Assembly (NCBI RefSeq): GCF_055900595.2
Contig: NZ_CM148325.1
Strand: one strand, 5' to 3'
Length of the DNA: 64,000 nt
The position numbers and the translations under genes were made by a program. Positions 52,073-56,326 of the stretch are shown here, one piece after another; the first letter of the stretch is position 1, and each line of letters starts with the position of its first letter. The notes under the pieces were generated by a model. The model was not told the DNA's origin and did no database searches. It worked only from the letters and a program-made list of their open reading frames with translations.

Positions 52073-55000
52073 TTATTTCATCGCCTCCTCGCCCGTTGCC
52101 GTATTGGCCTCCACCGCGGTAATGGTCACCGTCACTGGCTTCATTTCGTACCCGCCATAGGTCAGGGCGTTAAATGTGAACGTATAGACACCAGGCTTGC
52201 TGGTACTAAATGTACGCGTGATTTTTCCGCTCACGAAATGGTCATTTTTCGACGGCAGGAACTGATAATCCTTCTCCGTCACCCCTTCCGGCGTCTGAAT
52301 GTCGACCCACATATTCCCGCCAACGGGGTTATTTGCCGACATCAGGGTCACCTCCAGCTTCGCAGTCGATTTCCCATCCGCCACCAGCGAAGGCACATTA
52401 GATGATGCGGTGAGCTGCGCGTTTTTATCATCCGCGACGAATTTAGCTTCGGCGGTTTTCGTTGATACCTGACCGTTGTTCTGACTCACTTGCGCCGTGA
52501 GTGTATATGTCGCCGCAACAGTAGTGGTGGCGGTGAAAATAGCCTGCCCTTGCTCATTCGTTGTCGTAGTGCCATTCGGTTCCAGGTTTAACGAAGCCGG
52601 GCTGGCGGTCAGCGTCACTTCGCTATCTTTCACCAAATTCTTATTGGCATCAGTCACCGTAACTTTATACGTTTGTTTGGCTTTGCCGTCCGCCAGTGCA
52701 TAGTTGCCAATCACCTCAATACTGGAGACGGTTGCGGTAGCCTTATCGGCTACAAACGTTATAGTCTGCGTATTCGAAGGCTGGCTATTCCCTGCCGATG
52801 CCGTGATCTCATACGTTCCGGCAGTCACTGAAACCACCTGCAACTCTGCTTTCCCCTCATCGTTGGCTTTCACCCAGACATTATCGCCAGTAAGCGGCTT
52901 GACACCCCGGGGCAGATTAAATGTCACCAGAGTTCCTGGAACAGGGTTACCGTTTTTATCCTCAACGGTCGCCGTCAGCGTAAAGGCATCTTTGCCGTTT
53001 GCCACTTTTTGAACGGCGGTGTCTACCTGCAGGTTTGCCTGACCGGTGCTGGCATCCGCGTTGAATTTCACCGTGACCGTCTTCTGAGAGTTTTTCACCG
53101 CGGCCGCGATTTCAAGTTCCCCTGCAACGGTTGATATCAACTCAATATCCGCTTTACCTGCCGCATTGGTTGTTACTGTATTCCCCGTCTTGCTAGTCAC
53201 ACCCTGCGGTAAAGTCAGCGTAACTTCTTGCCCCTGCAACGGGTTACCATAGCTGTCCACGACGGTCAGGGTTACCTGGTTAGCAGACTGTCCATTTGCC
53301 AGCTGGTTATCAACCTTCACCGTCATATCACGAATCTCAGCCTGAGAAGCGTCACCTGCAACATTCAGCACCAGTGGCTGAGCAACGGCATTTTGGCCGT
53401 TCACGCGTGGCATGACAGACAACTGACCTGCAGCCGATCCCAGCGTTAAGGTCGCCACGTAGACCCCATTACTTTGCTCTGTCCAGCTTCCTGCTGAAGG
53501 TCGCTCTGATCCCGTGCTGGCGGCACCGCTAAACACGGGTGCATCTGGCTTCAGCCCGGTGACCGGGTTCCCGTACGCATCCTTCACGGTGAAGGTGAGT
53601 TCCGTCGTCGTTTTAACCGTTGGAGTCTTATTGTCCGCAACAAGCGTAGAGTTCGCTGATGACATCTCCCCGGCGATGACCGTCAACTGCGCGGCTTCGG
53701 TGGCTGCTGGCTGGCCGTTGAAGAGCGGCATGACACGAAGCTCGCCCGTCTTTCCGCCTGTGGTCAACGTAGCAACATAGGAACCGTCACCTTTTTCGGT
53801 CCAACTGGAAACGGTCGCCCCTTCAGAGGCGGTCCCCGTCAAACTTGCCGACAACGAAAGACCACTGATAGCGTTGCCATGCGCATCTTTCGCCACCAGC
53901 GTCACGGTTGTGCTTTCGCCTGCTTTTACGCGATCTGCGGCTACAGACACTGTCGACTGGCCTGAAGATAACGCATCAGCCACCACGGTCACTTTAGCCG
54001 CATTCTCTGCCGCATCCTGTCCATTTAGCTTCGGCATAACTTCTAATTCACCCGCCGTAGAGCCGAGAGTAATCTGCGCAGTCCACGTCCCATCACCATT
54101 ATTTGTCCAGCCAGATGCCGTAGAACCAGCAGCTGCTGCGCCCGATAATGACGGTGCATCCGGATTGAGGCCTGTTACAGGGTTGTCATTGGCATCTTTT
54201 GCCGTCCAGATTGCCGTAAGCGTACCGCCGACCACCGGTTTATCAGGATTCAGGGTGATGGACGAATGTGCTGCATCAAGCGGCCCAGCAACGAACTTCA
54301 GCGTTTGTTGTAATGTACCCAGCTGATACTGCTCGCTGAAGGCACGCACAACAACGTTTCCGGCACGGGTCGAAGAAACCGTGGCGCTGTAAACCCCTGG
54401 TTTTATTTCCGAAATGGCACCAACGGTAACACCATTAGTGTCTTGCGGAACAAGTCGCAGGCGGCTGGCTTCTCCCGTCACCGGATTACCCTCGGAGTCC
54501 ACCGCAGTCAGCGTCAGCGTGTAGGCTTGCTGACCATCAGCAACCACGTCACCTGACGGCTCGTTAGCGCTCAGGGTGGAGTTTGCCACATCCATCATCG
54601 TGGCCCGCAGTTCTGCAGTGACGGTTTTGCTCATGCCATCAACGCTAACAGTAATCGTTGCCTCACCTGACTGCGTTCCGGTCGTAAAGACAGACTGGTA
54701 CACCCCTGCTTCAGTTTCGGTGAACTCACCCAGTGTGGGTTTTGCCTGTGATTTAGTGGCCTTCAGGGTACGAGTCACAATATTTCCAGCCGGTTTGAAG
54801 GATAGTTCAGTCTTGATCTGATCTTTCATGCCCGTGACTGGCTGGCCCTCTGCGTCGCGCAGAGACAGCACCAGCGGCTTTTGCTCATTACCGTTAGCAA
54901 GCATTTGAATACGGCTCTGACCGTCAAGCGTTAACGCAGTGCGATCGGCGCTCATACCAGCTCCGGTAATAACCACTTCTGTCTGCACACGTTTCGAGGC

Positions 55001-56326
55001 ATTGCCTTTGTTATCGTAGGCAACTGCTGAAATCGCATAATAATTGTCTTTGCCTGGACGGTAAGCCGGGAGCGTTACTTGCCACTGACTCCCCTGCCCG
55101 GTAATTTTGCCACCTTCAGCCAGTAATGATGGTGCTTCCCACTGCACATTTTTCAGACCGTGAGTCGCTTTGCTGACCACCAGCCCCAGGGAAACAGTCT
55201 GCCCGCCCTTGCCTTCAATACGCTCAGGCAGAGCAATACGGATCACTTCTGATTTGCGGTACTCAAGAATGATATTGTTATTACGCTCAACCAGGTCATA
55301 GCGGCTGCCTGCCAGCATTCGACGCTCGCGAATGCTGTCTGTATCGAGTTGTTTTTCCAGAGGTTCGCCAATTCGGTAGTTAACTTCCAGGCCAAAGCGA
55401 GTGTCATTCTCACCACTCTTGCCCTGCTTATGCCCGGCGCTCAGTGTCAGAAGAGGCACTGGTGTATAGGTTACCTCGGCAGAAATAGCATGCGGGTCTT
55501 TCTGGCGTTTATCTTTACCAAACAGCCCGACTTCATCGCCATAATACTGCTCATACATCAGGCTTGCGCCAAGCTGCGGCCAGGCAGGTAAATAGCCCTC
55601 AGCACGAATATCCCAGCCATTCGCCGGGCGTTCCTGATAATCCTCAACATCCGGTGATTTTTTCCAGCCAGAAGCCCGGATATAACCATTGGCGCTCAGT
55701 TTCAAATAATCACGCCAGTATTCCGCACCAACACCAATGCGGGTATGACTACGGGATAAATCATGATCGATAAAAGTATTCACCCCCGCCATCCAGTCAT
55801 TTCCTGAAAAATGACGCCAGCCAAAACCAATATTTGACTGAGTACGATCGTCGGTACGATGTATTGCCCCCTGAGTGAACAACATATTTGTCGGCGTGTC
55901 ATAAATCGGATAAAGCATTTCCAGCGAAGAATCCTTCAGCGAGAAATCTTTATCGACATTCAGTTTGACGCGCGCTGTACCATATTTCCCGAGCCACTCC
56001 TGTATTTCCTGGTTAGCTTTAGCGGTGGCCATTCCGGTAATAAAATTACGTGTCGCATCGCTATCTGGCTGACTGCTTAAAAATGTCCCGGCATTCGCGG
56101 CAAGCGACGCGACATTTTTCTCCACGTTATTATCAGCAGTTACCGTAGTATTTTCCATGCTCAATCGTGGCTGAACCGCATGCTGCGCATGTGCCGCCAT
56201 TACTGGGGTAAAAGTGACTGCGAGTGGGAAAAGAACCTGAACAGAGATATTTGCCCACGCCACGCAGCGGGCCAGAACTGAATAACGAAATCGTGGTTGT
56301 TTATGACCTGTTTTATAACGTGACAT
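52073..56326 (-). CDS. eaeH: intimin/invasin-family inverse autotransporter adhesin with many Ig-like repeats, 1417 aa, intact
   Basis: Single uninterrupted ORF; N-terminal beta-barrel region followed by Thr/Val-rich repeated Ig-like segments. Confidence 0.85.
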   Translation of the reverse strand: MSRYKTGHKQPRFRYSVLARCVAWANISVQVLFPLAVTFTPVMAAHAQHAVQPRLSMENTTVTADNNVEKNVASLAANAGTFLSSQPDSDATRNFITGMATAKANQEIQEWLGKYGTARVKLNVDKDFSLKDSSLEMLYPIYDTPTNMLFTQGAIHRTDDRTQSNIGFGWRHFSGNDWMAGVNTFIDHDLSRSHTRIGVGAEYWRDYLKLSANGYIRASGWKKSPDVEDYQERPANGWDIRAEGYLPAWPQLGASLMYEQYYGDEVGLFGKDKRQKDPHAISAEVTYTPVPLLTLSAGHKQGKSGENDTRFGLEVNYRIGEPLEKQLDTDSIRERRMLAGSRYDLVERNNNIILEYRKSEVIRIALPERIEGKGGQTVSLGLVVSKATHGLKNVQWEAPSLLAEGGKITGQGSQWQVTLPAYRPGKDNYYAISAVAYDNKGNASKRVQTEVVITGAGMSADRTALTLDGQSRIQMLANGNEQKPLVLSLRDAEGQPVTGMKDQIKTELSFKPAGNIVTRTLKATKSQAKPTLGEFTETEAGVYQSVFTTGTQSGEATITVSVDGMSKTVTAELRATMMDVANSTLSANEPSGDVVADGQQAYTLTLTAVDSEGNPVTGEASRLRLVPQDTNGVTVGAISEIKPGVYSATVSSTRAGNVVVRAFSEQYQLGTLQQTLKFVAGPLDAAHSSITLNPDKPVVGGTLTAIWTAKDANDNPVTGLNPDAPSLSGAAAAGSTASGWTNNGDGTWTAQITLGSTAGELEVMPKLNGQDAAENAAKVTVVADALSSGQSTVSVAADRVKAGESTTVTLVAKDAHGNAISGLSLSASLTGTASEGATVSSWTEKGDGSYVATLTTGGKTGELRVMPLFNGQPAATEAAQLTVIAGEMSSANSTLVADNKTPTVKTTTELTFTVKDAYGNPVTGLKPDAPVFSGAASTGSERPSAGSWTEQSNGVYVATLTLGSAAGQLSVMPRVNGQNAVAQPLVLNVAGDASQAEIRDMTVKVDNQLANGQSANQVTLTVVDSYGNPLQGQEVTLTLPQGVTSKTGNTVTTNAAGKADIELISTVAGELEIAAAVKNSQKTVTVKFNADASTGQANLQVDTAVQKVANGKDAFTLTATVEDKNGNPVPGTLVTFNLPRGVKPLTGDNVWVKANDEGKAELQVVSVTAGTYEITASAGNSQPSNTQTITFVADKATATVSSIEVIGNYALADGKAKQTYKVTVTDANKNLVKDSEVTLTASPASLNLEPNGTTTTNEQGQAIFTATTTVAATYTLTAQVSQNNGQVSTKTAEAKFVADDKNAQLTASSNVPSLVADGKSTAKLEVTLMSANNPVGGNMWVDIQTPEGVTEKDYQFLPSKNDHFVSGKITRTFSTSKPGVYTFTFNALTYGGYEMKPVTVTITAVEANTATGEEAMK

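Follow-up and report, generated by a model that had tools for sequence, protein, structure and literature searches.

The full-length fdeC (eaeH) adhesin gene and the conserved, strongly folding stretch upstream of it

Inverse autotransporters, FdeC among them, carry an N-terminal signal that directs export across the inner membrane, an N-terminal β-barrel that inserts into the outer membrane, and a chain of Ig-like domains that is threaded out through the barrel to form a stalk on the cell surface. FdeC expression is normally silent, appears on contact with host cells or at 39°C and above, and is notoriously hard to induce in vitro. FdeC has been characterised since 2012 (PMC3324786), and other alleles of the protein are displayed on the surface, bind epithelial cells and collagens, and promote aggregation (PMC3324786). 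EaeH of ETEC H10407 is an older name for the same gene, and the two proteins share 95% identity (PMC3324786). The gene occurs in about 99% of ExPEC isolates (PMC3324786); a complete copy was found in 67% of 126 genomes and a PCR product of the correct size in 83% of ECOR strains (PMC6714894). At the level of control, fdeC is repressed by H-NS (Easton et al. 2014, as cited in PMC11143625), and a plasmid construct starting ~250 nt upstream of the ATG gave expression at 42°C, not at 37°C (PMC11143625). Intimin (Eae, of EPEC and EHEC) and Yersinia invasin belong to the same secretion type, Ve, with a homologous barrel and an Ig-like passenger.

We analysed a window of 64,000 nucleotides from contig NZ_CM148325.1 (assembly GCF_055900595.2), in which the open reading frame at 52073..56326 on the minus strand starts with ATG and comprises 1417 codons plus a stop codon in the ORF listing. 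Its translation contains no internal stop and no frameshift, and RefSeq gives fdeC the identical coordinates in a genome with 100% identity across 51900-56900, so that the single uninterrupted 1417-aa frame proposed by an earlier, sequence-only reading holds. Six RefSeq genomes show 100% DNA identity over 5 kb and annotate the gene as “fdeC: inverse autotransporter adhesin FdeC”. To compare the product with FdeC of ExPEC IHE3034 (ECOK1_0290), which is the same gene at the same locus, we used APEC O1 as an ST95-type representative. Over its full length the protein is 92% identical to APEC O1 FdeC (WP_000092542.1; 1305/1415 residues), which lies above the yardstick of >91% amino acid identity among strains for FdeC/EaeH orthologues (PMC3324786). 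The APEC O1 protein is 1416 aa long, with the same order of barrel and Ig-like repeats, and agrees with ours at 57 of the first 60 positions; the window holds an allelic variant, whose differences cluster in aa 1080-1417. The crystallised FdeC fragment (PDB 4e9l) aligns with aa 595-1008 (E 2.5e-247). Together with the shared synteny, the full-length alignment and the 4e9l match agree with the EaeH/FdeC identity that had been put forward. We put the probability that the frame is an intact chromosomal fdeC (eaeH), encoding a type Ve adhesin, at about 97% from these comparisons, and nothing that we found speaks against the fdeC identity.

The domain content follows the same plan. A putative N-terminal export signal region occupies 56186..56326 (~aa 1-47, boundary approximate), with a hydrophobic stretch that ends in AHA-Q in the translation. 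The outer-membrane β-barrel translocator lies at 55277..56101 (aa 76-350), where Pfam PF11924 (IAT_beta) matches with E 3.9e-109 and is covered from position 3 to 279 of its 279 positions, and the barrels of intimin (PDB 4e1s) and invasin (4e1t) match aa 113-357 with E-values of 6e-71 and 3e-82, respectively. The N-terminal barrel on which the identification had been made to depend is therefore present. The surface passenger (52076..55255, aa 358-1417) opens with an Ig-like domain that resembles intimin D00 (PDB 6tqd matches aa 358-466), continues with about nine Big_1/Invasin_D3 repeats, and ends in a divergent C-terminal domain. Pfam finds Big_1 in five stretches and Invasin_D3 in nine. A self-profile search places repeats of ~100 aa with starts near aa 473, 592, 694, 797, 898, 1006, 1105 and 1209 and a weaker ninth at aa 1312, the nine spanning aa 473-1409. 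In all, the barrel is followed by about ten tandem Ig-like domains. An N-terminal IAT barrel and a C-terminal passenger of tandem Big_1/Invasin_D3 Ig-like domains are the marks of type Ve, and the IAT_beta, Big_1 and Invasin_D3 matches support the earlier description as a very large inverse autotransporter with tandem Ig-like repeats. By analogy with the family, a signal-led export step would place the barrel in the outer membrane and the Ig stalk outside, where it may serve adhesion and aggregation.

Could the frame instead encode another inverse autotransporter (intimin, invasin, YeeJ or an Iat protein), or be a decayed copy that merely looks intact? The N-terminal part does match the NCBIfam profiles IatC, Ilp, intimin and SinH at low E-values, but all of these matches fall far under the curated cut-offs: IatC scores 646 bits against a cut-off of 2400, and intimin_all scores 385.7 bits against 1400, its match being confined to aa 57-468. 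The 92% full-length identity to FdeC and the syntenic locus likewise argue against a different Iat protein. Compared with intimin and invasin, the FdeC passenger here is much longer, Pfam detects neither LysM nor a C-terminal, C-type lectin-like Tir/integrin-binding domain, and the gene lies outside the LEE island. Based on the profile scores, the FdeC match and the domain content, we rejected intimin and other Iat identities; decay is contradicted by a frame free of stops and frameshifts. Taken together, we regard this whole family of alternatives as having a negligible chance of being correct.

On the chromosome, fdeC and its reductase and regulator neighbours lie between the rcl genes on one side and ykgR on the other, in the order rclR-rclA-AKR-HTH-fdeC-AKR-AKR-LysR-LysR-hydrolase-oxidoreductase-ykgR. 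Neighbours in the window thus include an AraC-like HTH gene, aldo/keto reductases and LysR regulators; the immediate neighbours of APEC O1 fdeC are the same, and the published description also places reductases and regulators beside fdeC (PMC3324786). Beyond the 3′ end of the gene, a hairpin with a 14-bp stem (52007..52039, -20 kcal/mol for the region) lies 34 nt beyond the stop codon of fdeC, in the gap that separates this gene from the convergently oriented ykgA-like gene, and is likely a bidirectional terminator. Of 5426 complete E. coli genomes, 4573 contain 80% or more of the 5-kb fdeC stretch and only ~6-7 the exact allele of the window; an intact fdeC is the normal state in E. coli. In K-12, by contrast with the window, eaeH (b0297) is an 888-nt pseudogene adjoining IS3A. 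The earlier statement that K-12 eaeH is truncated by IS3 proved correct: only the first 292 codons remain, corresponding to aa 1-292 of our frame at 98% identity, and the cut falls inside the barrel. The IS3A breakpoint corresponds to window position 55451, and K-12 has lost the equivalent of 51700-55450 as well as a 6.3-kb block (56877-63182) that encodes reductases and regulators; the 200 nt upstream of eaeH in K-12 are nearly identical to the window. The window itself is free of IS elements, as had been noted: a colinear genome ~99.9% identical to it carries no transposase annotation across this stretch, and blastn of IS3A against the window gave no match. Because its identity, prevalence, locus and K-12 remnant all match known fdeC, the copy described here is an ordinary full-length gene that is already known.

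What has not been described before is limited to one stretch directly upstream of fdeC, which is very conserved and folds strongly. We refer to the unannotated ~180 nt at 56327..56508 (minus strand) as a putative 5′ leader, its 5′ end tentatively placed downstream of a candidate -10 box, a perfect TATAAT at 56515..56520 that is followed by a GC-rich discriminator and lacks a good -35 box. The box is invariant in all seven alignment sequences that cover it, strain E69 included; a consensus promoter scan of the fdeC intergenic region called no minus-strand site, the TATAAT box included. Three hairpins follow on the fdeC strand. Hairpin 1 (56415..56436; UUCCUUUUC-UGCG-GAAAAGGAA, -10.6 kcal/mol) is invariant in 10 lineages save for one loop base. 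Hairpin 2 with its U-tract (56391..56416) has the stem (AA)ACCGGG/CCCGGU(UU), the loop AAAU and the tail UUUUUCUGA; written out, it reads AAACCGGG-AAAU-CCCGGUUU at 56416..56397, then UUCUGA to 56391, with a predicted energy of -9.9 to -11.7 kcal/mol. It has the shape of a terminator, with CCGGG-AAAU-CCCGG preceding UUUUUCUG and the U-run on the transcribed strand, and among 10 sequences its loop varies while the stem is kept (C-G to U-G in 3/10). Hairpin 3 (56364..56387; GCAGACGC-N8-GUGUCUGC) contains the only compensatory change that we saw, G-C to A-U in strain E69. Hairpin 2 was absent from the minus-strand output of a terminator scan, presumably because its maximal stem takes up part of the U-run; the scan did report hairpin 1, on the plus strand. 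Short reading frames within the leader (such as one of 33 aa at 56391..56492) we judged to be chance.

Close to the start codon, the SD region UCAGGAAA (56335..56342), which contains the Shine-Dalgarno sequence AGGA, is predicted to pair with the tail of hairpin 2. In both the minimum free energy and the consensus folds, UUUUCUGA (56398..56391) pairs with UCAGGAAA (56342..56335); all eight pairs of this predicted helix are invariant in 10 sequences, and the consensus fold leaves both the SD and the AUG paired. Upstream stretches of 144 nt and 213 nt fold with z = -4.4 and -5.0, respectively, and none of 200 shuffles folded as well. With the temperature set to 30, 37, 42 and 50°C, the thermodynamic model leaves the SD unpaired with probabilities of 0.10, 0.13, 0.16 and 0.20, respectively, and it predicts no sharp melting of the SD helix between 37 and 42°C. 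Because this probability barely shifts between 37°C and 42°C, a simple RNA thermometer is not predicted.

The region of ~190 nt upstream of fdeC is present, as a single unannotated copy, in 5028 of 5426 genomes. The only further fdeC orthologues that turned up were those of E. whittamii, Escherichia sp. E1V33 and strain E69. Against the first two, positions -130..-1 differ at 3-5 sites; given that four-fold sites in the neighbouring coding sequence have diverged by 20-22%, about 26-28 differences would be predicted (binomial p about 3e-9 to 8e-9). Variable sites are commoner in unpaired columns (11/65) than in paired ones (7/123; Fisher p = 0.018), and five of the seven paired-site changes are G-C/G-U or A-U/G-U switches that preserve the pair on the fdeC-sense RNA; a G-U pair on that strand is a C-A mismatch on the opposite one. 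A covariation test over 10 lineages was not significant (one compensatory pair, equalled by 53 of 500 shuffles), and strain E69 does not preserve the 5′ third of the predicted fold. We did not find the leader outside Escherichia: the next relative, in Atlantibacter, is 55% identical, and we recognised no similarity in its upstream region.

A cis-regulatory leader upstream of fdeC is plausible: the conservation, the predicted fold, the pattern of variable sites and the temperature-dependent expression from the ~250-nt construct (PMC11143625) speak for it, whereas the negative promoter scan, the covariation test, the fold broken in E69, the predicted lack of melting and the absence of an Rfam match speak against it. 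The fdeC mRNA would start near 56508, downstream of the TATAAT box; the leader hairpins, hairpin 2 included, would keep the ribosome-binding site paired with hairpin 2's own U-tract; and until some signal opened the fold, the leader would hold back translation and possibly also transcriptional read-through. We hold the start near 56508 and a ~180-nt leader that sequesters the ribosome-binding site until a signal arrives only tentatively, with a chance of roughly one in three. Somewhat more doubtful still is the wider proposal that 56327..56520 is a dedicated cis-regulatory RNA leader, near-invariant across E. coli and its sister species, acting as a post-transcriptional FdeC switch in which a terminator-like hairpin and an anti-Shine-Dalgarno U-tract would operate on top of H-NS silencing; such a switch, long sought, would account for the restriction of FdeC to host-cell contact or temperatures of 39°C and above. 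The hairpin with a U-tract 65-90 nt upstream of the ATG at 56326, to which the sequence-only reading had drawn attention, is real, lies on the fdeC strand and is conserved. Of the two roles offered for it, insulation is unlikely because the upstream aldo/keto reductase gene (56891..57742) lies on the opposite strand, pointing away from fdeC, and is transcribed divergently; attenuation by hairpin 2 is possible. In the accessible literature we found no mapped transcription start or 3′ end for fdeC and none linking FdeC with “RNA thermometer”; among the matches listed, none linked eaeH with CsrA.

The same hairpins lend themselves to other explanations. Hairpin 2 and its U-tract might be the intrinsic terminator of a separate sRNA of ~110 nt, running from the TATAAT box (56520..56515) to ~56394, with fdeC expressed only via read-through or from another start. 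Its canonical shape (a GC-rich stem of 5-8 bp, a loop of 4 nt and five consecutive U) would suit this role, the conserved block sets in shortly before the TATAAT box even in E69, divergent as that strain is, and the element is retained in K-12-type genomes in which fdeC itself is destroyed. Yet the sequence between U-tract and ATG is conserved throughout, a better fit to one continuous leader than to an sRNA followed by a spacer, and inspection of these 65 nt by eye revealed no convincing promoter. Nor is an sRNA annotated at the locus in K-12 or the RefSeq genomes; a permissive Rfam search of 51000-58000 gave no match, and the locus is missing from the sRNA and 3′-end lists published with Adams et al. 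2021 and Bar et al. 2021, where eaeH and ykgP go unmentioned. We consider a separate sRNA improbable.

We assign a similarly low likelihood to the view that the three inverted repeats are DNA operator palindromes for a dimeric regulator, such as one of the neighbouring AraC- or LysR-type proteins, that controls the fdeC promoter jointly with H-NS. Perfectly conserved arms around variable spacers are also a signature of protein-binding palindromes, the locus holds several regulator genes (PMC3324786), and transcriptional control by H-NS is what Easton et al. 2014 are cited for in PMC11143625. Several natural variants, however, go from C-G to U-G or keep G-U (columns 100/114, 133/144 and 13/47), which preserves the sense-strand RNA helix and breaks the DNA symmetry. 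Moreover, the long-range complementarities between U-tract and SD region and between ACAU..AGGUA and UAUCU..AUGU have no rationale at the DNA level, and three different consecutive palindromes would require three different proteins.

Set beside known regulatory RNAs, the proposed fdeC leader shares with attenuator-type 5′ leaders a hairpin with a U-run inside the probable 5′ UTR, as predicted. Its predicted fold also includes the pairing of a U-run with the SD sequence AGGA that is seen in FourU thermometers, for example that of chuA in EHEC (PMC9002310), and expression of fdeC, too, is reported to respond to temperature; unlike those, the predicted fdeC helix lies inside a large, stable multi-branch fold, and the computed 37-42°C melting is absent. 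The leader falls in no Rfam family. As a gene, fdeC offers no novelty; its product, FdeC/EaeH, is an adhesin and vaccine antigen that has already been characterised. If the leader model is true, a structured leader that hides the ribosome-binding site would be a concrete, testable element of FdeC control, and it could matter for the use of FdeC as a vaccine antigen or reporter.

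Positions 52073..56326 on the minus strand form a single open reading frame of 1417 codons, which begins at the first ATG after the upstream stop; neither the ORF listing nor the translation shows a stop within it. Pfam places a complete IAT_beta barrel at amino acids 76-350 (E 3.9e-109), followed C-terminally by Big_1 in five stretches and Invasin_D3 in nine. A self-repeat profile resolves Ig-like units of ~100 amino acids at 473, 592, 694, 797, 898, 1006, 1105 and 1209, with a weaker unit at 1312; amino acids 358-466 resemble intimin's first Ig-like domain (PDB 6tqd). The domain annotation proposed in the sequence-only reading thus finds the N-terminal beta-barrel, and its description of an uninterrupted inverse autotransporter with tandem Ig-like repeats is correct.

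By sequence comparison, the gene is fdeC/eaeH. Six complete E. coli genomes carry the surrounding 5 kb (51900-56900) at 100% identity, and RefSeq annotates the gene there as "fdeC: inverse autotransporter adhesin FdeC". The proposed alignment to FdeC of a pathogenic strain, here the 1416-amino-acid protein of APEC O1 (WP_000092542.1), yields 1305 identical residues of 1415 (92%), and the solved FdeC fragment 4E9L aligns with amino acids 595-1008 (E 2.5e-247). On one flank lie rclR, rclA, an aldo/keto reductase gene and an AraC-like HTH gene; on the other are genes for two aldo/keto reductases, two LysR regulators, a hydrolase and a flavin oxidoreductase, and ykgR. These neighbors match the locus of regulators and reductases described by Nesta et al. 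(PMC3324786), which, among other evidence, identifies the gene as fdeC. We rejected intimin, IatC, Ilp and SinH as identities, since these and other NCBIfam models match only the shared N-terminal part, with scores far under the curated cut-offs. The barrel and middle domains are nearly identical to those of APEC O1; the amino acid differences lie mostly in 1080-1417 (window 52076-53090), the final three or four Ig-like domains, and their clustering points to a distal tip that is mosaic or diversifying. Within the locus, rclB and rclC (~1.05 kb) are missing at 49917-49978, between rclA (48592..49917, plus strand) and the aldo/keto reductase gene (49978..50862, minus strand); in the remaining complete E. 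coli genomes that were sampled, both genes sit there and the match is split in two around them.

The claim that the gene is intact here and truncated by IS3 in K-12 holds as well. MG1655 carries eaeH as an 888-nt pseudogene that IS3A directly abuts, with a truncated ykgA beyond the IS. The K-12 fragment equals amino acids 1-292 of the protein encoded here, at 98% identity; mapped onto the window, the break falls at 55451, and 51700-55450 is missing from K-12, as are 6.3 kb at 56877-63182. The latter segment holds the two aldo/keto reductases, two LysR regulators, hydrolase and flavin oxidoreductase; K-12 also lacks 50107-50831, which covers most of a third reductase gene. Judged by their position, its pseudogenes ykgP and ykgQ seem to be the stumps of these deletions. 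IS3A has no match within the window, and the annotation of strain E400634, which is colinear with it at ~99.9% identity, contains no transposase across this stretch, in agreement with the earlier remark that no IS element is present.

Intact fdeC is the normal state in E. coli, as both genome counts and published prevalence indicate. The 5-kb query has a match in 5097 of 5426 complete E. coli genomes, with at least 80% of it present in 4573. In a published survey, 67% of 126 genomes had a complete fdeC, and 83% of ECOR strains gave a PCR product of the right size (PMC6714894); the gene occurs in ~99% of ExPEC isolates, with more than 91% amino acid identity among strains (PMC3324786). The gene is therefore already known, common and well characterised, and the find is ordinary.

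The lineage of the window is rare: across prpE-prpC (tested on 9660-14240), only 8 of 5426 complete genomes reach 99% identity, and none of the others exceeds 97.7%. Its close relatives include Kenyan human stool isolates and a dog isolate. In E400634, cynX and an alpha/beta hydrolase gene are annotated as frameshifted and with an internal stop; both are intact frames in the window (3415-4596, minus strand, and 60967-61887, plus strand). Elsewhere, 28802-29161 holds 3.9 copies of a 93-bp unit, which look like REP/BIME palindromes (GCCGGATAAGGCG...CGCCGCATCCGGC); the "hypothetical protein" CDS that E400634 annotates across this array is probably spurious. Between yahK and yahJ (21014-26111), colinear-genome annotation places a four-gene sugar/AI-2-type ABC transporter and an ASCH-domain gene.

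Upstream of fdeC, sequence and folding confirm the hairpin with U-tract noted 65-90 nt before the ATG: on the fdeC strand it reads AAACCGGG-AAAU-CCCGGUUU-UUCUGA (56416..56391; hairpin 2). Hairpin 1 (56436..56415) adjoins its upstream end, and hairpin 3 (56387..56364) lies downstream, both on the minus strand. The suggestion that hairpin 2 insulates fdeC is unlikely, because the upstream gene (56891..57742) is divergent, on the opposite strand, and no neighboring gene sends a co-directional transcript into fdeC. A stretch of 213 nt ahead of and around the start codon gives a fold with z = -5.0 (0 of 200 shuffles as good), and in both single-sequence and consensus folds the U-run UUUUCUGA of hairpin 2 is predicted to pair with UCAGGAAA, which holds the Shine-Dalgarno sequence (SD) AGGA, and an outer helix (ACAU..AGGUA with UAUCU..AUGU) to cover the start codon. 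Four GGA motifs lie within ~90 nt (56335-56425, minus strand): GCGGAAAA, AAGGAAAC, CGGGAAAU (bordering the loop of hairpin 2) and CAGGAAAU (at the SD). By analogy, this arrangement resembles CsrA-bound leaders.

Across seven diverse E. coli strains, K-12 included, and also in E. whittamii and Escherichia sp. E1V33, the final ~200 nt ahead of the ATG are almost unchanged. Against the latter two, positions -130..-1 show 3-5 differences where 26-28 are expected from the 20-22% divergence at four-fold degenerate sites of the 450 neighboring codons (binomial p ~3e-9 to 8e-9). The 3' two-thirds of the region are kept even in the far more divergent strain E69. In that genome (CP089930.1, labelled E. 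coli; 2700-3000), the fdeC N-terminus is 91% identical and the upstream region is largely unalignable beyond ~-250, with a block retained from TTGCACAAAAAGCTAAATT up to the ATG. The element is single copy, occurs in 5028 of 5426 genomes, and has neither an annotated feature nor an Rfam match.

Two alternatives to a leader RNA need weighing: that the inverted repeats are DNA operator palindromes, or that a separate small RNA ends at hairpin 2. As to an RNA structure, columns vary more often at unpaired than at paired sites (11/65 vs 7/123, Fisher p = 0.018, with E69 left out). Of the seven paired-site changes, five swap G-C and G-U or A-U and G-U, which leaves the fdeC-sense RNA paired; read from the other strand, G-U becomes a C-A mismatch. 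In hairpin 2 the loop bases vary freely, including an indel, and the stem is kept. True covariation amounts to a single pair of hairpin 3 (G-C to A-U) and is not significant (53 of 500 shuffles as good), and the sequence of E69 breaks the predicted 5' helices. The comparative evidence for an RNA structure is thus suggestive, not conclusive. A perfect TATAAT box (56520..56515, minus strand), a candidate -10 followed by a GC-rich discriminator, is invariant in every aligned sequence covering it, E69 included; it has no recognisable -35 box, and a consensus promoter scan made no call. The accessible papers and supplements gave no mapped 5' or 3' end for the locus.

Expression of fdeC is reported to depend on temperature. 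In EHEC, FdeC was detected only at 39 °C or above (Easton et al., as cited in PMC11143625), and in APEC a construct starting ~250 nt upstream of the ATG was expressed at 42 °C, not at 37 °C (PMC11143625). This places a temperature-responsive determinant within the region containing the leader, with effects of H-NS and of RNA not separated. In a computed temperature series, SD accessibility rises slowly (0.13 at 37 °C, 0.16 at 42 °C), so the model does not support a simple melting switch. By our estimate, there is about a one-in-three chance that the upstream region acts as a cis-regulatory RNA, whether through SD sequestration or through attenuation. The lead that remains at this locus is the conserved, structured, unannotated region upstream of fdeC.
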